NCBI GenBank assembly: GCA_031459535.1
Contig: JAVKIJ010000064.1
Coordinates: 1 to 18,857, forward strand
Direction of reading: 5' to 3'
Length of the DNA: 18,857 nt
DNA from: Candidatus Fervidifonticultor quintus
Lineage (GTDB): Bacteria; Sysuimicrobiota; Sysuimicrobiia; Sysuimicrobiales; Humicultoraceae
Shown: positions 2,190 to 18,433 of the stretch, piece after piece
Numbering within the stretch: position 1 is the stretch's first letter
How the letters are laid out: every line of letters starts with the position of its first letter
Position numbers and translations under genes: made by a program
Notes under the pieces: generated by a model
Databases searched by the model: none
Told to the model about the DNA's origin: nothing
Seen by the model: only the letters and a program-made list of their open reading frames with translations

Positions 2190-2393
2190 CGCGACGGGTG
2201 CAGCATGTCCACGTGGATCTCGCCTTCGCCAGAGTGGGGACGCGCTTGCGGAAGTGATGTGATGCGGTTCAGGAGGCCCGGAACTGGCCGCAGGCGGCCC
2301 CCTTCCCTGCACCCGGGCCGCCCCGGGGCAGGGGATCATCCCCCAGAGGTAAAAAGGCTCTGTCAGTACCAGGATATCCGGGAGCGCAGACGC

Positions 2394-4580
2394 ATGACCC
2401 AGGAGCAGATTCAAGCGATCGTTGCCAGCAGCCGGCCCGAGCGACTGGCAGATCCGGGCAGGCACCCGATCCCCGGCGACCATATGGCACACATGGTCCA
2501 GCTCACCTCGTGGGGCCACTGTGCCCTGGCGGCGGACCACCTCCTGTTCCCGGAGATCACAGGAGCGCTTCCGGCGGTCGTTTCGGGGGTGATCCGGCAA
2601 CTCAACCTGCAGTTTGCAGCCGCCGACCTCGTCGGCGGCGACGGGCGCGAGACGGCTGAGAGGAAGATCAGAACCCGGCAGTTCGCCTACCAGACCTTGC
2701 TGGAGATGGCCCTCAACTTTGCGGGAATGGAGAGCCGTTGGCTGGATGCCGGTGAGAAGCGCCAGGCCACAGCAGCGATCCGGGCCACGCTGGCCGAGTG
2801 GGAGGCACGGGAGACCGCCCGAGGGCCGGCCTCCGTGGCCGCCGCGGTGGTACGGCACTTCCTCGACCGCATGAAGCTGGTCCAGAAGGGCGCCAGCATG
2901 GTCGCCGGGACCGCCGCGCGAATCGAACAGGCGCTGGACTTCGGCCGGCCCGTGATGGCCCCCTTCCTGGATCGCGCCCAGGCGGAGATCGAGCAGAACA
3001 TCTACACGCGCCTGGTCCGCGGCGGGCATTGCCGGTTCGGCAATGACTACGCTCTCGGGCTGCGCTGGCTGCGCCACCTGGGATTCGAACAGGTCTCCAC
3101 CAACCCGGTGCTGGCGGCCCTGGCCTACCAGGACGACCCGGCGCTCGGCCAGACCTTTCAGACCGAGGTCCGCGCGCATCCCAAGTTCGCCCAATGGGCC
3201 CGCGCCCCGGAGAAGTCGGCGGATGAGATCGCGCTCTACGCGACGCTCCTGGCCCTGTGGGACAACCTGCACGTCTTTCGGCCCATCTTCTTCAACCTCG
3301 CGCGCGAGTCGGGCGGCGGCGTGGTCTCGTTCCAGCTCAACCCCAACATCGCCCACCTGGTTGAGGAGAGTATCCGCGACGTCTTCGCTGCTGTCGAGGC
3401 GGCTGCGGAAGACCTGCGGACCTACGACGACTATCTGCTGGCAGGATATCCCGCCTTCCGTGAGCGCGCCCGACCCAACATGGTCATCAAGGTAGCCGCC
3501 TCGTCACCCGCGGCCCGCGAGATCGCCCGGACCATCAACGGGTTCGGCATCGGCTCCAACGTCACCGTGGTGTTCGCCGCAGCCCAGGAAGTCACCATGA
3601 TCCTGGAAGAGCTGGCCGGTATGGCTCACGCGGTCCACAAGGGCATTCTGCCCACGCAGGTCTACATGACCAACATGGGCGGGCGGCTCGAGAGCCACCT
3701 GCGCGAGGTGAAGCTGGAAGAGCTGTTCCGCAGGCTCCGGGACCGGGTTGGCGAGCAGCGGGCTCTGGAGCGGTTGCACCGGCTCGCCGCAGCCAACGGG
3801 ACGCAGGAAAGAGTCGATCGGGCCAGCGGGTACGAGGCCAAGGTTATAGCTGCCACCCGGTATGCACACCAGCGCACCATCGACAGCCACGTGATCGACG
3901 CGCTCGGAGAGGTGGCGTCCGAGGAGGAGTTGAGGACCTGGGAGGACGTCATCGGCAAGTCCGGGACGCTGGTGGCCCGCCGGGTCTGGGGCATTTTCTT
4001 CTCCCCCCAGAACCGGGAGAGGTGGCTGGACTACCTCGGCCGCACGTATGGGTTGAGCCGCGACCAGGCCCAGTTCGTCTTGAGCCGGATTCACTACCTT
4101 CCGGCCTCGAAGCGCAAGCCGCAGGACACCTACTGGGCCCTGGCCAGCAGCAACATGGTCCACACCGAGTTCCCCAACCACCAGGAGAACGTGCGCCGCA
4201 CCGCTGAGACCCAGGGGTTCTCACTGGAGCCCTATCTGGAATCGGTCACCGGTCAGTTTTCGCCCGAGGTGGTCGAGTGGTTGAATCGCCTCCCGGACTT
4301 CCAGCGGGCATACGAGCTGAACCCCCAACTCAACGAGATCCTGCGCCTGGCCGGCATCGAGGGCGATTTCGGCAGCGGCGGGTTGACACCTGACCAGTGG
4401 CCCGAGTTCGGGTCCGTACAGAAGACGCTGGCCGAATTCAAGGCAGCGTACGATGCCTTTAGGGACCACATGCTGGGGCTGTTCAAAGAACTGGTCAAGC
4501 CCGCGCGCACCACCAGGACGGCCGCGCACGCCGCCCGTAGACCCGCCCGGCTCGCCGCAAGGGCTCGCAGGCGCCGGTGA
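2394..4580 (+). CDS. Long (about 728 aa) transaldolase/class I aldolase-fold protein
   Basis: Transaldolase-like motifs in order: FGND, VSTNP, VVSFQLNP, PNMVIKV (Schiff-base Lys codon 3489-3491), NVTVVF, TNMGGRL, PASKR, HTEFP. ATG 2394 has GGAG at 2381-2384; the longer 2205 start in the ORF track is unlikely. Confidence 0.8.
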   Translation: MTQEQIQAIVASSRPERLADPGRHPIPGDHMAHMVQLTSWGHCALAADHLLFPEITGALPAVVSGVIRQLNLQFAAADLVGGDGRETAERKIRTRQFAYQTLLEMALNFAGMESRWLDAGEKRQATAAIRATLAEWEARETARGPASVAAAVVRHFLDRMKLVQKGASMVAGTAARIEQALDFGRPVMAPFLDRAQAEIEQNIYTRLVRGGHCRFGNDYALGLRWLRHLGFEQVSTNPVLAALAYQDDPALGQTFQTEVRAHPKFAQWARAPEKSADEIALYATLLALWDNLHVFRPIFFNLARESGGGVVSFQLNPNIAHLVEESIRDVFAAVEAAAEDLRTYDDYLLAGYPAFRERARPNMVIKVAASSPAAREIARTINGFGIGSNVTVVFAAAQEVTMILEELAGMAHAVHKGILPTQVYMTNMGGRLESHLREVKLEELFRRLRDRVGEQRALERLHRLAAANGTQERVDRASGYEAKVIAATRYAHQRTIDSHVIDALGEVASEEELRTWEDVIGKSGTLVARRVWGIFFSPQNRERWLDYLGRTYGLSRDQAQFVLSRIHYLPASKRKPQDTYWALASSNMVHTEFPNHQENVRRTAETQGFSLEPYLESVTGQFSPEVVEWLNRLPDFQRAYELNPQLNEILRLAGIEGDFGSGGLTPDQWPEFGSVQKTLAEFKAAYDAFRDHMLGLFKELVKPARTTRTAAHAARRPARLAARARRRR

Positions 4581-4584
4581 CGCC

Positions 4585-5835
4585 GTGACGCTCCAGCCGT
4601 ACAGCATGGGAATCGGCGACCGGTTCGGCCGCCAGGGCCGCGCGCAGCTCGAGGCCTTCGTGCAGGCCAGGGCCCTGGGGATCGACCTGGTCCCGGTGTG
4701 GAACAAGTCGCACCGTGAGCACCGGATCATCGGCACGCATCCTGCGGCGGTGCGCGCCGAGGCCGACGCCGCCGCCTCGGCCCTGGGCTGGAGGCACTCC
4801 TACTACGTCGACGCCGACCACATCACGCTCGAGACCGTGAACGCATTCATCCCGGCCAGCGACTTCTTCACCATCGACGTGGCTGACTACGTGGGCCGAT
4901 CGGCCTCCCAGAGCGACGTCTCGGACTTCGTGGCGCGGCACCGCCGGCTCATCGGCGTGGTGCGTATCCCGGGGATCGAACGCGAGCTCACCATCTCTGA
5001 CGGCGAGGTGGCTGCGATCGCCCGGAAGTACCTGCGGGCCGTGCGGGAGGCGGGTGCCATCTATCGCCACGTGGAGGCTGCCAAGGGTCGCGACCAGTTC
5101 ATCACCGAGGTGTCCATTGACGAGACGGACACTCCACAGACGCCCGTCGAGTTACTGTTCATCCTCGCAGCCATGGCGGACGAAGGGATCCCGGCGCAGA
5201 CCGTCGCCCCCAAGTTCACCGGCCGGTTCAACAAGGGCGTGGACTACGCCGGCGACGTGGGCCAGTTCGAGCGAGAGTTCGCCGAGGATCTGGCCGTGAT
5301 CGCGTTCGCCGTCGGCGAGTTCGGCCTGCCCACCAATCTCAAGCTCAGCGTGCACTCTGGCAGCGACAAGTTCGCGATCTACGAACCCATCGCCCGGGCC
5401 CTGCGCCGGAGTGGCGCCGGCGTCCACCTCAAGACCGCCGGCACCACATGGCTGGAAGAGGTCGCCGGGCTGGCGGCGTCAGGGGGAGAAGGCCTGCGGC
5501 TCGTGCAGGACATCTACGAGCAGGCCCATGCGCGGATCGACGAACTCTGCGCGCCGTACGCGGCGGTGATCGACATTGACCGCGGCCGTCTGCCCGACCC
5601 TGGGGAGGTCAGGCGATGGTCGGGACAGGAGTTCGTCGCCGCCCTGCGTCACGATCCGACCTCCCCGGCGTATAACCCGCACTTCCGCCAGCTGCTCCAC
5701 GTAGCCTTCAAGGTCGCCGCCGAGATGGGCCCCGCCTACCTGCAGGCCCTCGATGCCCATGCCGGCGTCATCGGCCCCCTGGTTACGGAGAACCTGCTCG
5801 AGAGGCACATCCAGCCCCTCTTCGGGCGCCTGTAG
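4585..5835 (+). CDS. uxaE: Tagaturonate/fructuronate epimerase family protein (UxaE-like)
   Basis: Motifs SMGIGDRFG, DADH, FFTIDV, EVSIDET, APKFTGRFNKGVDY, KLSVHSGSDKF and HLKTAGTTWLEE. The GTG at 4585 lies 4 nt after the upstream stop. Confidence 0.85.
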   Translation: MTLQPYSMGIGDRFGRQGRAQLEAFVQARALGIDLVPVWNKSHREHRIIGTHPAAVRAEADAAASALGWRHSYYVDADHITLETVNAFIPASDFFTIDVADYVGRSASQSDVSDFVARHRRLIGVVRIPGIERELTISDGEVAAIARKYLRAVREAGAIYRHVEAAKGRDQFITEVSIDETDTPQTPVELLFILAAMADEGIPAQTVAPKFTGRFNKGVDYAGDVGQFEREFAEDLAVIAFAVGEFGLPTNLKLSVHSGSDKFAIYEPIARALRRSGAGVHLKTAGTTWLEEVAGLAASGGEGLRLVQDIYEQAHARIDELCAPYAAVIDIDRGRLPDPGEVRRWSGQEFVAALRHDPTSPAYNPHFRQLLHVAFKVAAEMGPAYLQALDAHAGVIGPLVTENLLERHIQPLFGRL

Positions 5836-6759: not shown

Positions 6760-7734
6760 ATGGCCGACCAACGTCTTCTCTATCTCTCGCAGGCCGACGT
6801 GGCGTCTGCCGGCGTCACCATGCAGGAGATCATCGACGCGCTCGAGGCGGCGTTCCGCGAGCACGGCGAGGGCCGGGTGGAGATGCCGCCCAAGCCCGGC
6901 GTACACCCGCGTCCCGACGCGTTCATCCACGCCATGCCGGCCTACATCCCTGCGCTGCACGCGGTCGGCCTCAAGTGGGTGAGCGGGTATCCGGAGAACT
7001 ACCGACGCGGGCTGCCGTATATCAGTGGACTGCTGATCCTCAATGATGAAGAGACCGGCGTGCCGCTGGCGGTGATGGACGCCACGTGGATCACTGCCAT
7101 GCGCACAGGCGCGGCGACCGCGGTGGCGGCAAAGTACCTCGCCCGGCCCGACTCGCAGACCCTGGGCATCCTGGGCTGCGGCGTGCAGGGCCGCAGCAAT
7201 CTGGAGGCACTGCGGGTGCTGTTCCCGATAGAGCGCGTCATCGCCTACGACATCGTGCCCGAGCAGACCGCGCGGTTCGCCGCCGAGGTGAGGGCTCGTT
7301 GGGGGCTGGAGGTCGTGGCGGCGCGGCAGCCGCGGGAGGCGGTCTCCGGTTGCGACCTGGTGGTAACGGCCGGTCCCATCCTGCGGCGGCCCCACGCCAC
7401 CATCAAGGCCGGCTGGTTGGAGGAAGGCGCTTTCGCGTCGCTGGTGGACTTCGACTCCTACTGGGATGGGGCCGCCCTGCGAGAGGTGGACAAGTTCTGC
7501 ACCGACGACATCCCCCAGCTCGAGCACTATCGCGCTGCCGGGTATTTCCAGGACATCCCGCCCATCTACGGGACGGTAGGCGAGCTGGTGGCGGGCAAGA
7601 AGCCGGGACGCCAACACCCCAGGGAGCGCACCATGACGTGCAACCTGGGGCTGGCGCTGGACGACATGGCGACGGCACCCATCGTCTACCGCCGGGCGAT
7701 CGAACGGGGAGCGGGGACCTGGCTCCCGCTGTAG
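6760..7734 (+). CDS. Ornithine cyclodeaminase / mu-crystallin family protein
   Basis: MPPK, HAMPA, GLKWVSGYPEN, ITAMRTGAA, Rossmann GILGCGVQG and GLALDD motifs; GGGAGGG RBS before ATG 6760. Confidence 0.9.
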   Translation: MADQRLLYLSQADVASAGVTMQEIIDALEAAFREHGEGRVEMPPKPGVHPRPDAFIHAMPAYIPALHAVGLKWVSGYPENYRRGLPYISGLLILNDEETGVPLAVMDATWITAMRTGAATAVAAKYLARPDSQTLGILGCGVQGRSNLEALRVLFPIERVIAYDIVPEQTARFAAEVRARWGLEVVAARQPREAVSGCDLVVTAGPILRRPHATIKAGWLEEGAFASLVDFDSYWDGAALREVDKFCTDDIPQLEHYRAAGYFQDIPPIYGTVGELVAGKKPGRQHPRERTMTCNLGLALDDMATAPIVYRRAIERGAGTWLPL

Positions 7735-7772
7735 CAGATCGAGCGCAGCGCCCGATGCCTTCGCCGACGGCG

Positions 7773-8699
7773 CTAGTGACGGAGCAGATTCCGCAGGACG
7801 AACAGAACGTTGGCGGGCCGCTCGGCGAGCCGGCGCATGAAGTACGGATACCAGTCCGACCCAAACGGCGTGGCGACCAGCACCTGGTAGCCCTGCGCCA
7901 CCAAGTCGAGCTGCAGTTGCGGGCGCACCCCGTAAAGCATCTGGAACTCGAAGCGCTCGGGGCCGATCCCGTGGGTGCGGACGAAGTCGATTACGTGGTG
8001 GATGATCCGGTCGTCGTGGGTGGCAATGGCCGTGTAGCCTCCGTCCGCCAGTGCGCGCTCCGCCAGCTTGATATAGTTGCGGTCCACGTCGGCCTTCTTC
8101 GGGAACGCCACGGTTGGTGGTTCCAGGTAGGCTCCCTTCACCAGGCGCAGGTTGGGCCGGTACGGGAGCAGCGCTTCCAGGTCGGCCTCGCTCCGGTAGA
8201 GGTACGACTGGAGGGCCGTGCCCACGTTGTCCAGCCCGTCGGCCCGTAGACGGCGGTAGATCTCCAGCGTGGCGTCCGTGCGGCCGGAATCCTCCATGTC
8301 GATGCGGATGAAGTTCCCCAGCCCGGCGGCGTACTGCACCAGGTGCGCGACGTGGCCGTAGGCCACATCCACCCCCCGATCCAGCCCGAGGTGCGTGAGC
8401 TTCAAGGCCACATTGCAGCGCAGCCCTTCCTGTCTGATCCGGTCCAGGATGACCACGTACTGCTCCACCACGGCGCGGATCAAGGCCTCCTCGGTGAGTC
8501 CCTCACCCAGCAGCGTGGTGTTGGTCTTCAGGCCCCTGGCATTGAGACCGCGCAGGACCCTGACGCACTCGTCCAGGCTCTCGCCCGCGACGAACCGCGC
8601 CGCCCCGAGCCGCATGCCGTAGCGCCGAACCCAGGCCGTCATCCGGGGACTGCGTGCCGCGGAGAGAATGACGTGGCGGAACAGTGAGGTCGCCGGCAT
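7773..8699 (-). CDS. Monofunctional proline dehydrogenase
   Basis: RFVAGE, LLGE, ALKLTHLG, FIRIDME, LQSYL, LRLVKGAY, IATHD, EFQMLYG and WYPYFMRRLAERPAN motifs. Confidence 0.93.
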   Translation of the reverse strand: MPATSLFRHVILSAARSPRMTAWVRRYGMRLGAARFVAGESLDECVRVLRGLNARGLKTNTTLLGEGLTEEALIRAVVEQYVVILDRIRQEGLRCNVALKLTHLGLDRGVDVAYGHVAHLVQYAAGLGNFIRIDMEDSGRTDATLEIYRRLRADGLDNVGTALQSYLYRSEADLEALLPYRPNLRLVKGAYLEPPTVAFPKKADVDRNYIKLAERALADGGYTAIATHDDRIIHHVIDFVRTHGIGPERFEFQMLYGVRPQLQLDLVAQGYQVLVATPFGSDWYPYFMRRLAERPANVLFVLRNLLRH

Positions 8700-8708
8700 C
8701 CAGCCCAC

Positions 8709-8737
8709 AGCGTATGGGGCCGGCCCGGGGGCGTCAA
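8709..8737 (-). promoter_or_regulatory. Putative sigma70-type promoter for the proline dehydrogenase gene
   Basis: Minus strand TTGACG (8737-8732), 17 nt, TACGCT (8714-8709), then 9 nt before ATG 8699. Confidence 0.55.
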
Positions 8738-8753
8738 GCTTCGGGGTAGCGCC

Positions 8754-10745
8754 CTAGCGGCTCCCGGCCAGGCCCCACCCGAGGACCCGAGCGAGCTCGT
8801 CTGCCGAGGTCAGCCCATCGAGCACGAGCGCCCTGCCGGCCTCGTAGATCCGCGAGCCATCCTCGAGCACCCGCTCGACGACTTCGCCGGCCCGACCGAC
8901 CCTTAGCATCCGCCGGCTTGAGGCGTCAACGCACCAGACGTCGAGGAGCAGGCGCCGGCCCTTGAACCCGGTGAAGCCGCAGGTTTCGCATCCGGTCGGC
9001 GCGAAGGTCCGCGCACCCCGGAAGGGACCCGCATCACCACTGACCGGCTGCTTACACGCCGGGCAGAGCAGCCGAACGGCGCATGCGGCGACGATCGCCC
9101 GGAGCGTGGAGGCCACCAGCGCCGGCCCCACGGCGTCCAGCGCCTCGCTCAGCACCGAGACCACCTCGCCGGCCGCGTGACCGGCCAGCAGCACTCGCGT
9201 GCGTCCGGCTTCGAACACCGCGGCCTGGGCCGGCCGGCTCGAGGTATCGTCAACAATCACCAGATCGGCGCCGGCTTCGCCCGCGGCGGCGATCGTCGGT
9301 GCCACGTCGGCCCCGGGAGCGCGCACGGTCTGGTTGATGGTCGAGCGCCGGTAGACCGGGGCAGCCTCGAGGGCCCAGATCTTGCCGCGTAGCCCGGCGG
9401 GAACCAGGCCGTGGAGCAGGGTCGAGCGCACCCACCGGTCGGCGCACCCGACCACGACCACACCTGAGGCGGCCTGCAGCGCTTCGCGGACCGGCTGGAT
9501 GAGTTCCTCGGACACCCCTAGGGCCGGAAGGTCGGGCACGTCGGCGTGCAGCGGTTGCACCACCACCGTGGCTGCCTCGCCGTACATGGTCGGTAGGAAG
9601 GTCCCCACGAGCATCACGTCTCGATCTCCCACCGGAAGGGTGACTGTCGCGGTGGTCCCCGCCGCCCCGCCGGCGCCGGTGATGTGGCGCAGATGCCTGA
9701 GAATCCCGGCGTGCAGGTCGGCCGGCTGCCCAGGCCGGTCCACGAGCACACCCTGCAGGCGGTACCGTACGCGGGCCGCACCGTCGGGCCCCGGGTCGAA
9801 GTGGATCTCAGTTCCCCCCTGCTGCAGGGCCTGCACCAGGTGGAACTGGAAGTACTGGGCCTCCGTCGCCCCAACCGTCGGTGTGCCGCTGTCGCTGGGT
9901 GTGCTGCGGTTTGGGAAGAACCAGTCCTGCATCTGTTCGATGTTGGACGACAGGGCCAGCGCCCGGCGTACCTGCAGGCCGGTCCGCGCCGTGATCTCGT
10001 CCACGGTCTGCTGGTCGGTAGGGTCCACCATGGCCAGGGTCATCTCCTGGCCGAACTTGAGGATGGGCAGCACCCGGCGGTCGCGCACGAAGGCCTCGGG
10101 CAACAGTCGGGCCGTCTCCGCATCGATGATCTCGGGCGACAGATACACGTAGGGATAGCCGAGCTGATGGCTCAACGCCCAGGCGAGGTCGTCTTCGGAC
10201 AGCGCGCCCTGCTCGACGAGCACCTGGCCGAGACGCTTGCCGCTCCTGGCCTGGGCGGCCATCGCCTGTTGGAGCTGGTCGGGGGTAATGAGCATGTTGG
10301 CCACGAGCAACTCGCCCAGCCGGTCCGGCTGCCCGGCGCTGCGGGCCCGCTCATCGTCCGGACCTGGAGCGGCACCCGGCAGCCAGGCGGCGATCTCCTG
10401 GGGAAAGGTACGAACATTGATGGGCTTTTCCACCGTGCCGAGGCAACCCGCCTGCAGCCACGCCTCCCGGTCCTCCGGCGCGGCCAGCGCACTCATGGCG
10501 AGGACCCGGATGGCGGCGCTGCGGGGGTTCTCTCGCAGTTTGCGCAGCACGTCCAGCCCGTGCAGGTCGGGCAGGTGCATATCGAGCAGGATGAGGTCGG
10601 GTTGCGTCTCTTGGGCCAGCGCCAGTGCCTCGGCACCTGAGCGCGCCTCGCTGACCTCGAATCCCGCGGGTTGCAGCACCCTGCGCACGAGCGTCAGGTT
10701 GGGCGGCTGATCATCCACCACCAGCACGCGCGGCAGGCGTTTCAT
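8754..10745 (-). CDS. Fusion of receiver domain, tandem MshEN motif and GspE/PilB-like domain with degenerate ATPase motifs (about 663 aa)
   Basis: REC (VLVVDD, LILLD, AMSA, EKP); two MshEN repeats; T2SSE-N-like LAMVDP; EIHFDP..VRYRLQGVL; CPAC and GCETCGFTGFKGR Zn motif. The Walker A position reads VVVVGCADRWVRST. ATG 10745 overlaps the upstream stop (ATGA). Confidence 0.88.
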   Translation of the reverse strand: MKRLPRVLVVDDQPPNLTLVRRVLQPAGFEVSEARSGAEALALAQETQPDLILLDMHLPDLHGLDVLRKLRENPRSAAIRVLAMSALAAPEDREAWLQAGCLGTVEKPINVRTFPQEIAAWLPGAAPGPDDERARSAGQPDRLGELLVANMLITPDQLQQAMAAQARSGKRLGQVLVEQGALSEDDLAWALSHQLGYPYVYLSPEIIDAETARLLPEAFVRDRRVLPILKFGQEMTLAMVDPTDQQTVDEITARTGLQVRRALALSSNIEQMQDWFFPNRSTPSDSGTPTVGATEAQYFQFHLVQALQQGGTEIHFDPGPDGAARVRYRLQGVLVDRPGQPADLHAGILRHLRHITGAGGAAGTTATVTLPVGDRDVMLVGTFLPTMYGEAATVVVQPLHADVPDLPALGVSEELIQPVREALQAASGVVVVGCADRWVRSTLLHGLVPAGLRGKIWALEAAPVYRRSTINQTVRAPGADVAPTIAAAGEAGADLVIVDDTSSRPAQAAVFEAGRTRVLLAGHAAGEVVSVLSEALDAVGPALVASTLRAIVAACAVRLLCPACKQPVSGDAGPFRGARTFAPTGCETCGFTGFKGRRLLLDVWCVDASSRRMLRVGRAGEVVERVLEDGSRIYEAGRALVLDGLTSADELARVLGWGLAGSR

Positions 10746-11197
10746 CTCGCAAGCCTCCCCTCCGCCATGGGGCGATCCTCCTGGGCGTAGCGTTGTCTGA
10801 GCTGAGCGCCGATGCGGGCGGCCAGGTCGGCGGCGACAAATGGCTTTGTCACGTAGTCGCGCGCCCCCGCCGCCAGGCCCGCCACCATCGCCTGCTCGCC
10901 GGCGACCGCGGTGAGGAAGATGACGGGAACTGCTGCGGTGGCCGGGTCGGCCTGGAGCATGCGGCAGACATCCAACCCCGACAGCTCGGGCATCATGATG
11001 TCCAGCAGGATGAGATCGGGGCGGAAGGCGCCCACGGCCTCGAGGGCCTCGCGGCCGCTGCAGACGGCCCGCACCGTGCACCCCCAGCGCGTCAGGTGGG
11101 CAGCCAGGACTTTGAGATTGATGGGCTCGTCATCGACGATGAGGATCCGGGGTGTTCGGCCGCCGATGTAGGCTTCGAGCGAAATGGCTTGGGTCAT
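10742..11197 (-). CDS. Single-domain response regulator
   Basis: ILIVDDE, LILLDIMMP, IFLTA and YVTKPF, a complete receiver set with no output domain. Confidence 0.9.
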   Translation of the reverse strand: MTQAISLEAYIGGRTPRILIVDDEPINLKVLAAHLTRWGCTVRAVCSGREALEAVGAFRPDLILLDIMMPELSGLDVCRMLQADPATAAVPVIFLTAVAGEQAMVAGLAAGARDYVTKPFVAADLAARIGAQLRQRYAQEDRPMAEGRLAR

Positions 11198-11225
11198 TGT
11201 CCAGAGTCCCCCGTCCGCTCCCGTC

Positions 11226-13496
11226 TCAATCGATCCGCAATCTCAAGACCCCGTCGAGAATCTTCATCAGCTCCCTGACGTCAATCGGCTTGGCCAGGCA
11301 CGCATGTGCGCCGGAGGCCAGCAGGCGCTCGGCCTGCTCGGGTGATGGGTCCGAGCTCAACACGACCACGGGGATCCGCCGTGTCTTCAGATCGGCCTGC
11401 AGGCGGTGCAGGACTTCGCTGCCCGGGATGTCGGGCAGGTGCACGTCGAGCAGGATCAGGTCGGGGACGTGTTCGCGGGCCAGGGTGAGACCCATGCGGC
11501 CCTGCATGGCCGACATCAGCTTCACCCCAGGCCGCCGGGCCAGCACGCGTTCGATCAGGTCCAGATGGGCCAGGTTGTCCTCGACGTACAGGACGGCGTA
11601 GGTCGTCTCGGTGAGGCCCCTGACGGCTCTGGCCTGCGCGACGTCTGCCGGACGATCGGCGGGCTGCGCGGCCGGCTCGGCCAGCGGGAGCTCGATCCAG
11701 AACGTGCTGCCGCGACCCACCTCGCTGTCCACACCGATCGTGCCGCCCATGACTTCGGTCAGGCGTTTAGAGAGTGCCAGGCCGAGCCCAGTCCCTTCAA
11801 CGCCGCCCCCGGCGGTCCCGAGCCGCTCGAAGGGGATGAACAGCCGCTCCTGCTTGTCCGCCGGAATGCCTGGACCGGTGTCGGTGACCTGGATGCGCAC
11901 GCGGTCATCCTGAGTGCGGTACGACAGGATGACCTCGCCGCCCACCTTGTTGTACTTGACGGCGTTGGAGAGCAGGTTCAGCAGCACCTGCTTGAGGCGC
12001 TGTCGATCGGCCAGGACCCTGTGCGCCTCGGCGTCGGCCATCTCGGGGCGCAGCCGCACGGCCCGCTCGGCCGCCAGCGGCGCGGTGAGCGCCAGCACCT
12101 CCTCGGCGATCTCCCCCAGTCCCACTGACTCCGGCGAAACGGACATGCGGCCCGCTTCGATACGGGCGATGTCCAGCACTTCATTGATGAGGTCCAGCAG
12201 GTGGCGGCCGGCCTTGAGGATGTAGCCCAGGTTCTCCCGCTGCTCCGGCGAGAGAGGGTCCATCTCCAACAACTGGGCGAAGCCCAGCACGGCGTTGAGC
12301 GGCGTGCGGAGTTCGTGGCTCATGCGGGAGAGAAACTCGCTCTTGGCCAGGTTCGCCCTCTCGGCGTCCAGCCGGGCCTGCTCGAGTGCGGCCTCGATCT
12401 CCTTGCGGTTGGTGATGTCTAACCCGAGGCCAAGCAGGCTCTCGACCGCACCCCGCTGATCGCGCTCAAGGGTGACCAATGTGTAGATCCAGTGATAGGT
12501 CCCGTCTTTGTGGAGCATGCGGTACTCGTCTGTGAACTGTCGCTCGCCCTCCGTGACCGCGTCGGACACCACGGCCCGGAACCGCTCGTAGTCCGCCGGG
12601 TGCATGTGCGCCTTCCAGAACCCCGGTGTCTGGAAGACCTCGTCGGGCGCATACCCCAGGACGCGCTCGGTGCTGGGGCTGATGTAAGAGACGCTCAGGT
12701 CCCCGGCTGAAGCCCGCCAGACGATGAAGGGGCCTGCCGCCACGAGATCTTCGAAGAAGGCGCCAGCCTCACGGCTCACGGCCACCCGCTCCATCGCCGA
12801 CCGCCCGGCCGCGTGGCGCAACTCGCGGTTCTCGAGCTCGAGCCGGCGATTCCTCTCCTGCAGTTCGGCCACGAACGAGGCACGGGCCAGGGCATGCCCG
12901 ATCCGCTGTGCGATCGTCAGGGCGAGGAGCTCGTCGTCCTCGGAGTACGGCACAGCGGCCGTCCCGCGCCTGGACACGTAGAGTACGCCGATGGGCTGAC
13001 CGTTGGTCTTCACCGGTGCCAGCAGTAGGCTGCGTGGTCCATACCGGTTCAGCGCAGCCCACAGGTCCGGCCGTACCGAGGGCCGCATGTCGTCCGGACT
13101 CGCCCTCGGGATCCGCACCGAGCGCCCGCTCTCCAGCACCCGCGTCAGCAGCGTGGGCCCGTCGCCAACGGACGGCACCAGCCCCGGGAGCGCCCGCATG
13201 AAATGCACGGCTTCTGGATCGGTGTCGGCAGCGGCGACGAGCCGGAGAGGCCCGCCGCCGGCCGGCCGGAGCAGAATCGCGCAACTATCGCCGAGGACCT
13301 CTGCGGTTCGCACCGCCGTCGCAGAGGCGATGGCGGTCTCGGTGAGATCTGCCTGGTCGATAGCCGCGCACACCTCGGCGAGCGCCTCGGCCCGCGACAG
13401 CCCCACCGAGCCGTGCCCCCTCGGGACGGGCGTTCCGGGTTCGCGTGCCGGTGGCATCTTTGACAGGGCGCGGTCCATGGGCGGCACAGATCTCAT
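11226..13496 (-). CDS. Hybrid sensor histidine kinase (GAF-PAS-HisKA-HATPase-REC)
   Basis: GAF-like N-terminus (SLLLAP..IGVLYV..YSEDD); PAS/PAC (YISPS..LGY, HPAD, EYR..KDG, DIT); H-box SHELRTPL; NAVKY; DTGPG; GTGLGL; C-terminal REC (YVED, LLDVHLP, AKP). Confidence 0.93.
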   Translation of the reverse strand: MRSVPPMDRALSKMPPAREPGTPVPRGHGSVGLSRAEALAEVCAAIDQADLTETAIASATAVRTAEVLGDSCAILLRPAGGGPLRLVAAADTDPEAVHFMRALPGLVPSVGDGPTLLTRVLESGRSVRIPRASPDDMRPSVRPDLWAALNRYGPRSLLLAPVKTNGQPIGVLYVSRRGTAAVPYSEDDELLALTIAQRIGHALARASFVAELQERNRRLELENRELRHAAGRSAMERVAVSREAGAFFEDLVAAGPFIVWRASAGDLSVSYISPSTERVLGYAPDEVFQTPGFWKAHMHPADYERFRAVVSDAVTEGERQFTDEYRMLHKDGTYHWIYTLVTLERDQRGAVESLLGLGLDITNRKEIEAALEQARLDAERANLAKSEFLSRMSHELRTPLNAVLGFAQLLEMDPLSPEQRENLGYILKAGRHLLDLINEVLDIARIEAGRMSVSPESVGLGEIAEEVLALTAPLAAERAVRLRPEMADAEAHRVLADRQRLKQVLLNLLSNAVKYNKVGGEVILSYRTQDDRVRIQVTDTGPGIPADKQERLFIPFERLGTAGGGVEGTGLGLALSKRLTEVMGGTIGVDSEVGRGSTFWIELPLAEPAAQPADRPADVAQARAVRGLTETTYAVLYVEDNLAHLDLIERVLARRPGVKLMSAMQGRMGLTLAREHVPDLILLDVHLPDIPGSEVLHRLQADLKTRRIPVVVLSSDPSPEQAERLLASGAHACLAKPIDVRELMKILDGVLRLRID

Positions 13497-14557
13497 CAGG
13501 CCAGCCCTTTGATCCGCAGTTTCAGGTCATTGGCCGAGTCCGCGGCCCGCAGGGCGTCCTCGTAGCTGATCAACCCCTGACGATGGAGCTCGAACAGGGC
13601 CTGGTCGAAGGTCTGCATGCCCTCCGAAACCCCGAGCTCTATGGCCTGCTTGATGGCAGCGATCTCGCCCTTCTTGATGAGTTCGCGAATGCGGGGGGTC
13701 GCCACCATGATCTCCACGGCGACCACCCGGCCCGAGCGGTCAGACCGCAGGACGAGGCGCTGCGAGACGATCGCCTCGAGCGTCAGCGAGAGCCGGTGGA
13801 GGACCTCCTGGGTGTGATCGGAGGGGAAAAAGGCCAGCATGCGTTCCAGGGCCTGAGACGCGTTGACCGAGTGCAGGGTACTCAACACCAGGTGCCCGGT
13901 CTCCGCGAAGTAGAGGGCCGCTTCGGCAGAGTCGCGATCCCGCATTTCGCCGATGAGCAGCACATCCGGCGTCTGACGGAGCGCTGACCGCAGGGCATCC
14001 GCGAAGCTCGGGGTGTCCGTGCCGACCTCCCTCTGGCTCACGATGCTGCGCTTGTCGGGGTGCAGGAACTCGATGGGGTCCTCTACCGTCACGATGTGGC
14101 CGTCTATCTGGCTGTTGCGGTAGTCAACCATCGCGGCCAGGGTGGTGGACTTCCCGGTGCCCGCGTGTCCGGTTACGAGGATCAGCCCGCGGCTGCGCAG
14201 GCTGAGCGCTCGGAGGACCGCCGGCAGCCTCAGCTCATCGAAGGAGGGGATGGCCAGTTTCACACGGCGGGCCACCAGCGCCACTGACCCCCGCTGGACG
14301 TAGACGTTCACCCGGAAGCGGCCCCGGCCCGGCAGGCTGTATGCCAGGTCGGCGCTCTGCTCGACCTGGAGCCTGTGCCGTTGCTCCTCTGTAAGCATCT
14401 GCAGGGCCAGCTCGCGGGCCAGGTCCTTGGAAACCACGTCCTGGGTGTTCGACGTGAGATGGCCGTGGATGCGGTAGGTGGGCGGGCAGCCAGCCTTGAC
14501 GTAGAGATCTGTGGCATCCAGCCCTTCCATGGCCTCCAGGAGATCGTTGATGTGCAT
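13496..14557 (-). CDS. pilU: PilT/PilU-family retraction ATPase (PilU-like)
   Basis: Walker A GHAGTGKST, TVEDPIE, QREVG, ALRQTPDVLLIGEMRD, GHLVLSTLH and GMQTFDQAL. It lacks AIRNLIRE and sits directly after pilT. Confidence 0.85.
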   Translation of the reverse strand: MHINDLLEAMEGLDATDLYVKAGCPPTYRIHGHLTSNTQDVVSKDLARELALQMLTEEQRHRLQVEQSADLAYSLPGRGRFRVNVYVQRGSVALVARRVKLAIPSFDELRLPAVLRALSLRSRGLILVTGHAGTGKSTTLAAMVDYRNSQIDGHIVTVEDPIEFLHPDKRSIVSQREVGTDTPSFADALRSALRQTPDVLLIGEMRDRDSAEAALYFAETGHLVLSTLHSVNASQALERMLAFFPSDHTQEVLHRLSLTLEAIVSQRLVLRSDRSGRVVAVEIMVATPRIRELIKKGEIAAIKQAIELGVSEGMQTFDQALFELHRQGLISYEDALRAADSANDLKLRIKGLA

Positions 14558-14578
14558 CGCGACGGCCTGCCTTCTGCG

Positions 14579-15667
14579 CTACATGCGGGCCACGACCGGC
14601 TCGCGCGTCCCCGGGGGACGCTCCGCCCCGAACATCGCCTTCTCGACGGCCCACCGGTACGCGACCTCGGCGGTGATCTGCCCGGTCTTCAGCAGGCTGC
14701 GCAGGCTCTGGTCGAGGCTCTGCATCCCGTCCTTGGTCCCCGTCTGGATCACCGAGAGGATCTGGTGGACCTTGCTCTCCCGGATCAGGTTGCGGATCGC
14801 GGGCGTGGCGATCATGACCTCCACGGCCGCCACGCGGCCCTTGCCGTTGGCCGTGGGGAGCAGCGTCTGGGCGATGACGGCCACCAGGCTCTCGCTCAAC
14901 TGGACCCGGATCTGCTCCTGCTGACTACTGGGGAAGACGTCGATGATCCGGTTGATGGTGGAGGCCGCGCTGGACGTGTGCAGCGTCGCCAGCACCAGGT
15001 GCCCGGTCTCCGCCGCGGTCAGGGCCATCGCGATCGTCTCCAGGTCCCGCATCTCCCCCACCAGGATCACATCGGGGTCCTCGCGCAGGGCGGCCCTCAG
15101 CGCTCCGGCAAACGACTTGGAGTTGGTCCCCACCTCTCGCTGGTTGACTACGCTGTGCCTGTGCTGATGAACGAACTCGATGGGGTCTTCGATGGTCACC
15201 ACATGGCAGTTCCGCCGCTCATTGATGATGTCCACCATCGCGGCCAGGGTGGTGGACTTGCCGGAGCCGGTGGGGCCGGTGACCAGGATGAGGCCTCGGT
15301 CCCTCAGGGCCAGGTCCTCCAGCACGGGCGGCAGCCCCAGCTCCGCCACCGTCTTGATCTTGGAGGGAATCAGGCGCAAGACAATGCCCTCACCCAGGCG
15401 ATGGCGGAAGACGTTGACCCGGAAGCGGCCGAGATTGGCGAGCTCGAGGGAGAAGTCGAGGTCCCAGTTCTCTTCGAACCGCGCCTTCTGGGTGTCGGAC
15501 AGGATGTCGTAGATGATCTCGTGCAGGTCCTGCTTGGTGAGGACCGGCGCGTCCTTCACGGGCCGCAGCTCCCCGTTCACGCGGAGCTTGGGCGGGATGC
15601 CCACGGTGAGGTGGAGATCCGAGGCATTCGCTTGCTTGGCCAGGATCAACAGGTCGGTGAGGTCCAC
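14579..15667 (-). CDS. pilT: Type IV pilus retraction ATPase PilT
   Basis: ASDLH, GPTGSGKSTT, TIEDPIE, LREDPDVILVGEMRD, GHLVLATLH and the PilT signature AIRNLIRE; GGAG RBS before GTG 15667. Confidence 0.95.
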   Translation of the reverse strand: MDLTDLLILAKQANASDLHLTVGIPPKLRVNGELRPVKDAPVLTKQDLHEIIYDILSDTQKARFEENWDLDFSLELANLGRFRVNVFRHRLGEGIVLRLIPSKIKTVAELGLPPVLEDLALRDRGLILVTGPTGSGKSTTLAAMVDIINERRNCHVVTIEDPIEFVHQHRHSVVNQREVGTNSKSFAGALRAALREDPDVILVGEMRDLETIAMALTAAETGHLVLATLHTSSAASTINRIIDVFPSSQQEQIRVQLSESLVAVIAQTLLPTANGKGRVAAVEVMIATPAIRNLIRESKVHQILSVIQTGTKDGMQSLDQSLRSLLKTGQITAEVAYRWAVEKAMFGAERPPGTREPVVARM

Positions 15668-15810
15668 GATGTCGCTCCGGAAGAACTGATGGCTTCCTCA
15701 AGAGGGATGGTGACGTCCGACACGGGCCGCGAGCCTCTGTCGGAGACCCACAGAGGGCTATGCCCGGATTTCGGCACCGATAGACTTCCCGAGGGGCGCC
15801 CAGTCGGGTG

Positions 15811-17691
15811 CTACCCGGGCTCGGGTGCGGTGCCGCCGGGCGGCGACGGGTCCGCCAGGAGGTCCCGGTCACGCCGGATGATGAGCTCCCGCTCCAGCGG
15901 TGACATGGTCTCCAGCAACCGCAACAGCGCATCAACCACGCCTGGGTCCAGCGTGGTGCCCGCCATGCGCCGCAGCTCGGCCTTGGCCTCTTCCAGGGAC
16001 TTCCGAGGTCGGTACGGCCGGTCCGAAATCAACGCATCGAACGTATCGGAGACGCGGATGATGCGGGCCCCCAAGGGGATCTGGGAACCCGCCAGACCAT
16101 CGGGATACCCGGTCCCGTCGTAGGCCTCCTGATGGTAGAGCACCAGATCCGCCAGGTGACTGAACGGTCCGGCCTCCGCGAGCATGGCCGCGCCCCGCTC
16201 GGGGTGCTTCCGCACCAGCTCCCATTCCGCAGGGCTGAGCGGTGAGGGCTTCCGGAGAATGACCTCGGGGATGGCGAGTTTGCCGATGTCGTGAATCATG
16301 CTGGCGAGTTTGATGCGCTCGATCTCCTCCGGCGGCAGCTCCAGCTCCATGGCGATGGCCACCGCGGTGCTCGCCACCCGGTGGCAGTGGGTCATGATCT
16401 CGCGGTCCCTGGCGGCGAGTACCTCGGTGAGCACCTTGATGCTGCCCAGCAGCAGCGTGCGCAGCTCCCGCTGGGCGCGGGCATCGGTCTCCGGGCTTTC
16501 GCTGGCGTCGATCAGGGCCTGCAGCGCTACCCGGTGCGGTCGGGACTGGAGCCGCCGCGGCCGGAAGACAGCCTGCTCTGCGGCGTCGCCCTCGCTGTCC
16601 GCCGCGCTAGCGGCCTCGGTCCCGCCCAGGCTCTCTGCCATCGGCTCGTGGAACACGACGCGGTTCTTGCCCTGCTTCTTGGCATCCAGCAAGGCCGCGT
16701 CCGCGCAGTCCAGCAACGAAGCCGCCGACAGGCGGCCGTGGTTGCGGAACTGGTACGTCGACGCGCCGACGCTGATGGTGACCCGGAACGTGCCCTCCGC
16801 GGTGGGAATCTCGGTTTCCTCTATGGCACGCCGCAGCCACTCACCACGCTGTACGGCATACTCGCGGTCGGTGCCCGGCAGGAGCCACACGAACTCTTCG
16901 CCGCCGTACCGGCATTGCGCGTCGCGCTCTCCCCTGCCTTCCAACATGATCTTGGCCACCTGCCGCAGGACGTCATCCCCGGCCTGGTGACCGTAGCGAT
17001 CGTTGATACCCTTGAACCAGTCGATGTCGATCACCAGACACGACAGCGGCTGGTCGCCGCGCGCCGCCCGCTCCATCTCCAGGTGCAGTCGGTCGTCGAA
17101 TGCCCGTCGGTTGAACAGGCTGGTGAGCGGATCACTGGCGGCGAGCTCCTCCAGGAAGCTGATCCGGCGTCGCAGCAGGTCCTCGCGGCCGCGCGCCCGG
17201 AGGATGGCCCGGATGCGGGCCGTCAGCTCCGTGGGGGACAGCGGCCGCTTCACGCAGTCTGCGGCGCCTTCATCGAGGCTAGCCGCCTGGCGCTCGACGT
17301 CGTCGGACGCGCTGAGTGCCACGATGGGGATACCGTGAGTGGCGGGGTCTCGCTTGAACGCCCGCACGGCCCCGATGCCGTCGAGGCCGGGCATGGCCAG
17401 GTCCAGGAGGACGAGATCAGGGGCCTGGGCCTTGGCGGTCGCAACGAGATCGGCAGCCTCGCTGGCGGCGGCGACCTGGGCCCCCAGCCCCTCGAGGCGG
17501 CGGGCAATGGTGCGGGCCGAGTGCACGTCGCTGACGACGAGGATGCGGGCGGGGCGGGAGCCGAACTGCAGGGCGCCGGTGGTCAACCTCTGGCGCGGCT
17601 TGGCGGTCTCCAGGTCATGGGGCATCCGGGTCTGTGACGCTGACAATGGCACCCTCGTGGCAGCCGACGGCTCTTCAGTGTGTGTTCCCAC
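15811..17691 (-). CDS. REC-GGDEF-HD-GYP protein (diguanylate cyclase / phosphodiesterase); start may be ATG 17625
   Basis: REC (DLVLLDLAMP); DPLTSLFNRR, DIDWFKGINDRYGHQAGD, RYGGEEF, AKKQGKNRV; HD-GYP motifs HCHRV, HDIGK, HPERG, DGTGYP, DTFDA and RPYR. Confidence 0.93.
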   Translation of the reverse strand: MGTHTEEPSAATRVPLSASQTRMPHDLETAKPRQRLTTGALQFGSRPARILVVSDVHSARTIARRLEGLGAQVAAASEAADLVATAKAQAPDLVLLDLAMPGLDGIGAVRAFKRDPATHGIPIVALSASDDVERQAASLDEGAADCVKRPLSPTELTARIRAILRARGREDLLRRRISFLEELAASDPLTSLFNRRAFDDRLHLEMERAARGDQPLSCLVIDIDWFKGINDRYGHQAGDDVLRQVAKIMLEGRGERDAQCRYGGEEFVWLLPGTDREYAVQRGEWLRRAIEETEIPTAEGTFRVTISVGASTYQFRNHGRLSAASLLDCADAALLDAKKQGKNRVVFHEPMAESLGGTEAASAADSEGDAAEQAVFRPRRLQSRPHRVALQALIDASESPETDARAQRELRTLLLGSIKVLTEVLAARDREIMTHCHRVASTAVAIAMELELPPEEIERIKLASMIHDIGKLAIPEVILRKPSPLSPAEWELVRKHPERGAAMLAEAGPFSHLADLVLYHQEAYDGTGYPDGLAGSQIPLGARIIRVSDTFDALISDRPYRPRKSLEEAKAELRRMAGTTLDPGVVDALLRLLETMSPLERELIIRRDRDLLADPSPPGGTAPEPG

Positions 17692-17726
17692 AGTGGATGC
17701 GGCCTAGTCGCCACACGGGAGTTCTG

Positions 17727-18433
17727 TCAGCGCCAGAGATGCCGCAGGGCCACGGTGAGCAGAATCGCCGCAAGGACCTTCCGGAGGTGGACTGGCAGTA
17801 GGCGATGGGCGCCGGTCCAGCTCCCCACGAGGCCACCCACGAAGGCTGCGGCGACCAGCGGGGCTAGATTGCCGAGCACCAGGGCGCCGCGGGCCGCGCG
17901 GCCGGCCAGACCTGCGACGGAGTTGACCACGATGAACGCAGCCGACGTGGCGGCGGTCGGCTTGGTTCCCGCCCATCCGGCCAGGATCATCAGAGGGCTG
18001 AGGAAGATGCCGCCGCCCACCCCGACCACCCCGGAAAGGACGCCGATACCCGCGCCGGTGGACAGGGCCACGATCCAGGACAGCGGGCGCGGCGGCCGTT
18101 CGGTGGGACTCCACCAGAGGCGCGCGGCGGCCGCCACCAGCGCCACGCCCAACAGCAGGCCGTAGACCTGAGGTGACACGTGGAGCAACCCGCCGAGGTA
18201 GGCTCCGGGCACCGACGGACGAGGAAGGGCAGAATCAGGCGCGCCGAAAGGTGTCCGGCCCTGGCGTAGGTGATCATCGCCACACCGGCGACCAGGATGT
18301 TGAGGACCAAGGCGCTGGTGGACATCTCGGCGGGCGGAACCCTGTAGAGGCTCAGCACGGCCAGATAGCCCGACGCCCCGCCGTGCCCAACCGAGGCATA
18401 CACGGCTGCGACGACCGCCACCAGGATCAGCAT
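17727..18433 (-). pseudogene. Sulfite exporter TauE/SafE family permease split by a 1-nt frameshift near 18216
   Basis: N-half YASVGHGGASGY...LILPFLV and C-half SVPGAYLGG...GVVGVGGGIFLSP...TSAAFIVVNS are in different frames. Minus strand GTC CG TCG GTG lacks one base. This could be a sequencing error. Confidence 0.8.

Follow-up and report, generated by a model that had tools for sequence, protein, structure and literature searches.

A conserved, catalytically degenerate PilB paralogue with receiver and MshEN domains is linked to pilT in Sysuimicrobiota

The stretch of DNA analysed here (the window) comprises 18,857 nucleotides (nt), positions 1 to 18,857 of contig JAVKIJ010000064.1 in assembly GCA_031459535.1, from Candidatus Fervidifonticultor quintus, a member of the uncultured phylum Sysuimicrobiota (CSP1-3). 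Its minus strand encodes a relative of the type IV pilus extension motor PilB, here termed pseudo-PilB, in which a two-component receiver (REC) domain and an MshEN domain precede a degenerate motor body. The gene lies at the downstream end of a co-directional cluster that includes pilT and a pilU-like gene.

Domain make-up and loss of the catalytic motifs

A search of a 5.8-billion-protein collection yielded a homologue set of 86 full-length proteins (P0002-P0087; 586-737 amino acids (aa), 50-89% identity), to which the counts below refer. The gene and its domains are as follows.

8754..10745, minus strand, stop codon included: pseudo-PilB gene (P0002), REC-MshEN-pseudo-PilB; intact 663-aa open reading frame (ORF), Pfam matches, 86 full-length homologues
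10398..10727, minus strand: receiver domain, residues 7-116; Pfam Response_reg PF00072, E 8e-25, with D11, D12, D55, S85 and K107
10164..10322, minus strand: MshEN_N tandem, 24+5+24, residues 142-194; read directly from the sequence
9906..10163, minus strand: MshEN C-terminal subdomain, residues 195-280; Pfam PF05157, E 1.4e-15
9531..9863, minus strand: N2D-like domain, residues ~295-405; alignment, AlphaFold2 (AF2) model, Foldseek match to PilF and PilB
8781..9530, minus strand: degenerate ATPase core (C-terminal domain, CTD), residues ~406-655; alignment, AF2 predicted local distance difference test (pLDDT), Foldseek, ratio of non-synonymous to synonymous substitution rates (dN/dS)
9423..9452, minus strand: former Walker A, VGCADRWVRS, residues 432-441; alignment and the 86 homologues
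8979..9065, minus strand: tetracysteine CPAC...CETC, residues 561-589; cysteines conserved in the 86 homologues

The start codon at 10745 is part of an ATGA that overlaps, by 4 nt, the stop codon of an upstream gene for a single REC domain. A 775-aa ORF that begins at a GTG farther upstream was rejected as the pseudo-PilB gene; it runs into the preceding gene. The receiver retains its acidic pair, phospho-acceptor Asp, Ser/Thr and Lys, and these residues are conserved throughout the homologue set: D55 (85 of 86), K107 (86), S85 (85) and D12 (83), with position 11 occupied by D in 79 and by E in 4. MshEN motifs I and II occupy residues 142-165 and 171-194 and start 29 residues apart. The C-terminal MshEN subdomain resembles the N-terminal domains of PilF, PilB and MshE in a PDB sequence search.

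The motor body is recognizable yet eroded. The T2SSE family (PF00437) scores 66 bits in pseudo-PilB (cut-off 24.9), mostly from the last 110 residues, versus 410-489 bits for the three true PilB/GspE genes of the same genome. The AF2 model has a mean pLDDT of 83.3, with most of the CTD at 85-97, and Foldseek superimposes it on PilF (5oiu_B) with a TM-score by target of 0.83 and a root mean square deviation of 3.3 Å over 382 columns. As modelled, then, pseudo-PilB keeps the PilB-type N2D+CTD fold.

Loss of the catalytic motifs was judged by alignment with the genome's own three full-length PilB/GspE proteins, all of which carry GPTGSGK[ST] and to which pseudo-PilB is only 22-27% identical.

Walker A: true PilB/GspE VTGPTGSGKT; pseudo-PilB VGCADRWVRS
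Asp box: true PilB/GspE T(V/I)EDPVEY; pseudo-PilB ALEAAPVY
Walker B: true PilB/GspE DPDI(V/I)MVGEIRD; pseudo-PilB GADLVIVDDTSS
His box: true PilB/GspE TGHLVLSTLHT; pseudo-PilB RTRVLLAGHA
N2D arginine motif: true PilB/GspE ERRxPQDGR; pseudo-PilB, a gap

Parts of these motifs persist. The Walker B region reads DLVIVDD: the catalytic Glu is lost and an acidic pair, D499-D500, remains (D499 in 85 of 86 homologues; position 500 is D in 77 and E in 7). The first Glu of the Asp box, E460, is present in 85 of 86. In the His box, R517 takes the place of the first His (75 of the 86 have R there), and the second His, H523, is kept in 82. The CxxC...CxxC cysteines (CPAC, CETC) and the GF(K/R)GR motif (GFKGR) are retained. 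Judged by its motifs, pseudo-PilB is a catalytically dead PilB paralogue, and their loss argues against ATP hydrolysis that would drive pilus or pseudopilus assembly.

These results bear on the initial annotation of this DNA, which had described an intact REC domain, an MshEN tandem and a PilB/GspE scaffold in an unbroken 663-aa frame. The ORF, the Pfam matches and the AF2/Foldseek comparisons all agree with that description. The 24+5+24 tandem also stands, although its end had been set at 10161, one codon beyond the actual end at 10164. The replacements listed for Walker A, Asp box, Walker B and His box are borne out by the alignment with the three PilB/GspE proteins, as is the preservation of GFKGR and of the presumed zinc-binding tetracysteine, whose cysteines are found in 85-86 of the 86 homologues.

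Conservation, distribution and ancestry

Most of the 86 homologues share the REC, MshEN and T2SSE Pfam domains; the same search returned about 10 REC-less forms of roughly 522 aa. The Walker A consensus GxxxxGK[ST] occurs in none of the 86 aligned proteins. Instead, the homologues share a replacement motif, VGCxDRxxRS, of which G433, C434 and R440 are invariant (86 of 86). Elsewhere in the CTD, D494 (86 of 86) and H445 (85) are similarly constant, as is the tetracysteine (C561 and C564 in 86 of 86, C586 and C589 in 85). Recurrence of the same degenerate motifs in every full-length homologue shows that they are not chance. Mean column conservation across this alignment is 0.64 for the dead core, compared to 0.77 for REC and 0.29-0.40 for the linkers, and 21 CTD columns are near-invariant.

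Selection was estimated by the Nei-Gojobori method (NG86) for five pairs among relatives with unsaturated dS (0.13-0.9). Values of dN/dS were 0.15-0.41 for the CTD, 0.03-0.19 for MshEN and 0.155-0.33 for the whole gene; the adjacent active pilT gave 0.09-0.14 (four pairs, three at the same loci). These values indicate that the dead core is under purifying selection, more relaxed than that on a working motor. A metagenome scan for close relatives of pseudo-PilB found nothing above 63% identity besides REC-only matches.

Could the gene simply be a decaying or neutrally drifting PilB duplicate without function? Two observations lean that way: the CTD dN/dS exceeds that of the adjacent pilT by a factor of 1.5-3, and 12 of 31 genomes surveyed from the window's order lack the gene (counts include the unpublished G013). 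Set against them are intact frames in 86 clusters down to 50% identity, dN/dS well below one, the near-invariant CTD columns, the high AF2 confidence and the conserved synteny described below. The conservation data thus already refute neutral decay, which we regard as barely credible. The initial annotation had inferred a pseudoenzyme, to be abandoned if close homologues proved to carry intact Walker motifs and this copy to evolve neutrally; the homologues carry none, and dN/dS is 0.15-0.41. With no canonical P-loop in the 86, a new invariant motif and dN/dS below 1 in every domain, pseudo-PilB is, as far as sequence comparison can tell, a conserved pseudo-ATPase and not a decaying gene.

A subtler alternative is that the nucleotide site is deviant rather than dead: R440 would serve in place of the Lys, alongside S441, E460, D494 and D499-D500, in a slow, switch-type NTPase. 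Few CTD positions are indeed as well conserved as those of the former active site (R440, D494, G433, C434, E460, D499), which suggests that the pocket is still used for something. However, none of the three P-loop glycines survives (C434, R437 and V439 stand in their place), and bulky residues (R/W or P/L) occupy the loop; also lost are the N2D arginines, the acidic residues of the Asp box, the catalytic Glu and the first His of the His box. We know of no P-loop NTPase that works with such a loop, and consider this alternative improbable.

The MshEN domain is less canonical than the receiver. Part of the text of Wang et al. (2016, PMC5013675) gives a strict motif, RLGxx(L/V/I)(L/V/I)xxG(L/V/I)(L/V/I)xxxxLxxxLxxQ, together with a relaxed pattern, and states that imperfect motifs are tolerated, full conservation being unnecessary. 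Neither motif of pseudo-PilB satisfies the strict pattern; motif II alone satisfies the relaxed one, and motif I departs from it solely at position 10, where M151 stands in place of the required G/A/S. At least one relaxed motif is present in 62 of the 86 homologues. Contact residues are better kept: R171 in 86, Q165 in 84, Q194 in 76, and R/K at position 142 in 75. Binding of cyclic di-GMP (c-di-GMP) by pseudo-PilB is therefore a plausible prediction.

Among the 31 genomes, 19 have a best match of the pseudo-PilB type: 13 with REC, 2 without REC (~50% identity) and 4 distant (33-38%). The remaining 12 have either a true PilB that carries Walker A as their best match or no more than a weak match; the best match in G020 had E 3.5e-12. 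G013 enters the counts over these 31 genomes and no other claim. Named relatives are metagenome-assembled genomes (MAGs) of Candidatus Fervidifonticultor, Geohabitans and Sysuimicrobium, along with records labelled 'Armatimonadota' or 'bacterium'. Genomes that bear a homologue also have true PilBs, three in this one. One of these (L001:1480-3705, contig C107 of this genome) is 741 aa long, with an N-terminal extension of ~170 residues before MshEN; a second MshEN-like match lies nearby at C107:17204-17539. The distant forms (L031-L036; 479-595 aa) keep MshEN ('EDDxAWAL'), with a core too eroded for the Pfam T2SSE model.

A quick IQ-TREE analysis used 64 chosen rows: 8 REC forms, 5 REC-less, 7 distant, 22 other degenerate proteins and 22 true PilBs. 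A single group, with approximate likelihood-ratio (SH-aLRT) support of 96, unites all 20 Sysuimicrobiota pseudo forms and one further representative. This group nests among 39-42 degenerate PilB-like proteins (SH-aLRT 98, 82), with the true PilBs outside. All 42 rows that lack Walker A group together, with moderate support and possible long-branch attraction; the deeper grouping of the degenerate forms is uncertain, given long branches and skewed composition.

Degenerate PilB-like proteins extend well beyond this phylum. Of the 150 best library representatives (50% clustering), 62 are without GxxxxGK[ST], and 33 of those are at least 440 aa long with a tetracysteine. The taxa found among 20 degenerate representatives were few: Methylomirabilota, Armatimonadota, Magnetococcales and 'bacterium'. 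P0159 combines REC, MshEN and a degenerate T2SSE without cysteines, and falls in a sister group together with a member of the Methylomirabilota; P0221 combines GAF, MshEN and a degenerate T2SSE. Sensor heads on degenerate PilB bodies thus appear as a recurring design.

Two further MshEN fusions were encountered. The library representative P0238 joins MshEN to an SIS domain. A Bryobacterales MAG encodes a 660-aa membrane protein (L037:8423-10405) with a C-terminal MshEN-type tandem; it is not a PilB relative and resembles the NfrB-type c-di-GMP-controlled glycosyltransferases.

Gene neighbourhood and proposed function

Upstream of pseudo-PilB, the cluster comprises the following genes.

10742..11197, minus strand: single-domain response regulator, 151 aa; Pfam Response_reg, E 5e-30
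11226..13496, minus strand: hybrid histidine kinase GAF-PAS-HisKA-HATPase-REC, 756 aa; Pfam, with H394 within SHELRTP
13496..14557, minus strand: PilU-like retraction-family ATPase, 353 aa, motifs intact, without AIRNLIRE; T2SSE, E 7e-42
14579..15667, minus strand: PilT retraction ATPase, 362 aa; T2SSE, E 7e-54
15811..17691, minus strand: REC-GGDEF(GGEEF)-HD-GYP protein; Pfam, with GGEEF, HD and GYP motifs all present

In the direction of transcription the order is REC-GGDEF-HD-GYP, pilT, pilU-like, hybrid kinase, single REC and pseudo-PilB, separated by 143, 21, -1, 28 and -4 nt. The window PilT has the motifs GPTGSGKS, IEDPIEF, GEMRD, HLVLATLH and AIRNLIRE. The REC-GGDEF-HD-GYP protein is likely, from its motifs, a c-di-GMP synthase/phosphodiesterase; both activities could reside in this one protein, under phospho-control. 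Orthologues of the single REC protein (59-78% identity) are encoded directly upstream of pseudo-PilB in L009, L010, L011, L012, L017, L019, L020 and L022, and a comparable kinase gene is found upstream in 9 of the 22 related loci. The L009 and L018 loci hold GGDEF, HD-GYP and REC-HD-GYP genes as well as hybrid kinases. In L018, from a related MAG, the pseudo-PilB cluster is followed within a few kb by a family-B DNA polymerase gene that an intein with a LAGLIDADG endonuclease domain interrupts (L018:15759-19589).

Elsewhere in the window, a 791-aa ORF (2205-4580, plus strand) has a weak transaldolase-family match only. It overlaps a tagaturonate-epimerase-like gene (4453-5835, plus strand) by 128 nt, so one of these two starts is probably wrong.

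Promoter and terminator searches of 7500-18000 gave 0 each, compared with shuffled means of 0.6 and 2.3, and are uninformative on operon limits. In a hot-spring metatranscriptome library (X4), contigs fall in all 30 bins of 7000-18000 at low depth, and pieces span the proline-dehydrogenase/pseudo-PilB and kinase/pilU junctions. This is at most a weak hint that the cluster is expressed, DNA possibly being present in such libraries. One 1.4-kb piece over the 3' part of pseudo-PilB has 27 differing positions, which shows the presence of a related strain.

The most persistent neighbour of pseudo-PilB is pilT. In the species collection, pilT directly follows pseudo-PilB in 20 of 22 family loci, the other two ending at a contig edge, and in 6 of 6 loci of distant REC-less forms (26 of 28 overall). 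In 12 of those 20 family loci, the gene after pilT is pilU-like. In all 18 relatives' genomes that bear the gene, this one excluded, the next gene downstream is pilT. The spacing between the two genes is often 3-12 nt, or they overlap. The reverse does not hold: pilT-pilU pairs occur without pseudo-PilB (G024, G028 and the second pair of G012), and upstream of these pairs tblastn found no pseudo-PilB match at E <= 1e-3. No pseudo-PilB without a nearby pilT was found in the loci and genomes surveyed. This one-sided pattern is consistent with pseudo-PilB being an accessory factor of the retraction motors.

With its ATP site lost, its two sensor domains kept, its sequence conserved and its gene linked to pilT, pseudo-PilB probably works as a regulator and not as a motor. 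The explanation that we favour, with no more than middling confidence, is that it acts as a non-catalytic, signal-gated regulator of pilus dynamics through PilT/PilU or the shared motor-docking site. One input would be a phosphoryl group on D55, with the hybrid kinase of the cluster as its probable source; the other would be c-di-GMP, which the GGDEF/HD-GYP enzyme encoded nearby would synthesize or break down. Both would alter the conformation or oligomeric state of pseudo-PilB. The output, suggested solely by gene order, would place the PilT/PilU retraction motors under its control. Pseudo-PilB might bind PilT/PilU directly; alternatively, as an inert look-alike of PilB, it might fill the motor-docking site at the pilus base and so time retraction. 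A complex prediction for residues 137-663 with the window PilT scored 0.30 (mark 0.32), and is counted neither for nor against binding.

The initial annotation had likewise proposed that phosphorylation and c-di-GMP are integrated by one protein. That proposal is plausible, with all five signature residues of the receiver present and a kinase, REC proteins and c-di-GMP enzymes encoded at the locus; its c-di-GMP half is left uncertain by the motif fit.

Several points weigh against regulation of retraction as proposed. The target of pseudo-PilB is read wholly from gene order, and pilB-pilT adjacency is common for real PilBs; the pilT linkage may therefore be partly inherited from an ancestral pilB-pilT operon rather than functional. 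In the window itself, pilT-pilU lies two genes upstream of pseudo-PilB and does not directly adjoin it. Moreover, the window PilT is 72-80% identical to the PilTs of another family (f5) and of the unlinked G012 pair, and only 63-67% identical to the pseudo-PilB-adjoining PilTs of its own family. These identities, and a gene order unlike that of all 18 relatives, suggest that the locus was rearranged and that its 'own' pilT pair was apparently lost; the comparison points to rearrangement or replacement of the motor pair, so that the local pairing may not be the ancestral partnership. (Only three PilT-family genes were identified in this assembly, which is 89% complete.) Signal input raises objections too. 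The relaxed MshEN tandem fits in only 16 of 86 homologues, and motif I does not fit here, so some members of the family may bind c-di-GMP only weakly or no longer bind it. Within the window, Pfam revealed no Hpt (histidine phosphotransfer) domain to link the hybrid kinase with the receivers. Finally, G004, a 96%-complete genome of the same genus, is without pseudo-PilB, which is therefore dispensable.

A different output, favoured by the initial annotation, is a block on extension: the dead PilB would poison hexamers formed with true PilB, or occupy the PilC/PilM platform, and thereby lower piliation. Pseudo-PilB retains the PilB-type N2D+CTD fold and the tetracysteine, and three true PilB/GspE proteins in the genome are possible targets. 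Motors are also said to compete for one platform, to go by the title of a 2021 paper by Koch and colleagues. However, the gene never stands beside pilB, pilC or pilM in the annotated loci (the window cluster, L009, L018 and L034), which contain no pilin gene either; the conserved neighbour is pilT instead. Mixed rings are made less likely by the identity of only 22-27% to the genome's PilBs. Action through PilB hexamers or PilC thus finds no counterpart in gene order, and we consider an extension block unlikely, although it overlaps with the favoured explanation, since platform occupation would hit PilT as much as PilB.

Somewhat less likely again is an output away from the motors, in which a permanently 'empty' PilB would relay c-di-GMP and phosphorylation signals to biofilm formation or other targets, the pilT linkage being historical. 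A Walker A mutant of Myxococcus xanthus PilB up-regulates exopolysaccharide, and the substrate-free state may be the signal, according to part of a review (PMC11656802). By analogy, nucleotide-free pseudo-PilB could signal too; the locus is rich in signalling genes, and degenerate PilB-like proteins bear diverse heads. Yet a tight and lasting adjacency to pilT is hard to explain as a remnant among families that share only 30-38% pseudo-PilB identity.

Regulation of retraction, if correct, may have a wider counterpart. We suggest, tentatively and with more doubt than conviction, that degenerate MshEN-PilBs are widespread 'dummy motors', which sit at the pilus base or on PilT/PilU and serve as signal-gated clutches for retraction. 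Dummy motors would then constitute a third kind of motor-site occupant, besides the extension and retraction ATPases, and that of the Sysuimicrobiota would be the most elaborate, with phosphorylation and c-di-GMP inputs on one polypeptide.

Comparison with known systems

How bacteria choose between extension and retraction of type IV pili is an open question. Known answers invoke PilB cofactors (FimX, PilZ, and c-di-GMP on MshE) and competition among motors for one docking site. A conserved, selected, dead PilB with two sensor domains is a candidate for a new regulatory principle, that of a motor-shaped regulator. The pattern seems to be repeated across several phyla, and a mechanism established in any one tractable species would therefore be of wide application. 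Moreover, public records name the homologues 'type IV pilus assembly protein PilB', 'MshE' or 'ATPase', and these names are probably wrong functionally.

Degenerate PilB-like proteins are widespread, and no description of them was found in the literature searched. No paper on a catalytically dead PilB came up in these searches, and none is shown in the parts of the 2024 review of PilB cofactors (PMC11656802) that were covered. The main text of the Sysuimicrobiota paper (PMC11604079) does not mention pilus, PilB or PilT.

The REC-MshEN-T2SSE architecture alone is not new, contrary to the initial annotation, which knew of no described protein of this kind. P0247 likewise has REC before MshEN before T2SSE; it differs in its intact GPTGSGKT and in a T2SSE score of 423 bits, compared to 66 for pseudo-PilB. 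Atlas clusters from other phyla (55 and 80 members), known from domain content alone, combine the same three Pfam families. REC-MshEN response regulators such as Bd2402 also exist, as part of Wang et al. (2016, PMC5013675) records. Only the dead form is unusual.

The closest precedent for the sensor is Vibrio cholerae MshE, whose MshEN (5htl) is matched in the PDB sequence search. Both proteins have an N-terminal four-helix MshEN with two 24-residue motifs, a 5-residue spacer and a body of the PilB/GspE type, and pseudo-PilB exceeds the Pfam cut-offs of PF05157 as well as PF00437. MshE, however, is an active ATPase with GPTGSGK[ST], whereas pseudo-PilB has replaced catalytic motifs, an M in motif I and an added REC domain. 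For the body, the best PDB sequence match is Thermus thermophilus PilF (6f8l, E 8e-47), and structure matches to PilF (5oiu_B) and Geobacter PilB (5tsh) have TM-scores by target of ~0.8. These proteins share N-domains of the MshEN/GSPII type, the N2D+CTD fold and the zinc tetracysteine, but are working extension motors, with 21-22% core identity and with all catalytic motifs different.

The gene arrangement also has a parallel. In Geobacter sulfurreducens, mshE (GSU0435) lies directly upstream of pilT3 (GSU0436), an order conserved in related species; in the part of Speers et al. (2016, PMC5065972) concerned, mshE is treated as a putative ATPase, no degeneracy is noted, and co-transcription with pilT3 is judged unlikely. 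As in most pseudo-PilB loci, a PilB-like gene of the MshE type stands just upstream of a pilT paralogue; unlike pseudo-PilB, it has no REC domain.

Finally, other non-motor proteins tune pilus motors to c-di-GMP or other cues. CpiA, from the title of a paper, is reportedly a motor inhibitor in Acinetobacter. FimX and PilZ are PilB cofactors, as stated in part of a review (PMC11656802). These proteins have unrelated folds and act on PilB, whereas pseudo-PilB is a dead copy of the motor itself, linked to pilT. Set beside these systems, pseudo-PilB represents the PilB/MshE family of c-di-GMP receptors turned pseudoenzyme, to which have been added a receiver domain, wiring to two-component and c-di-GMP signalling, and a tie to the retraction motors.

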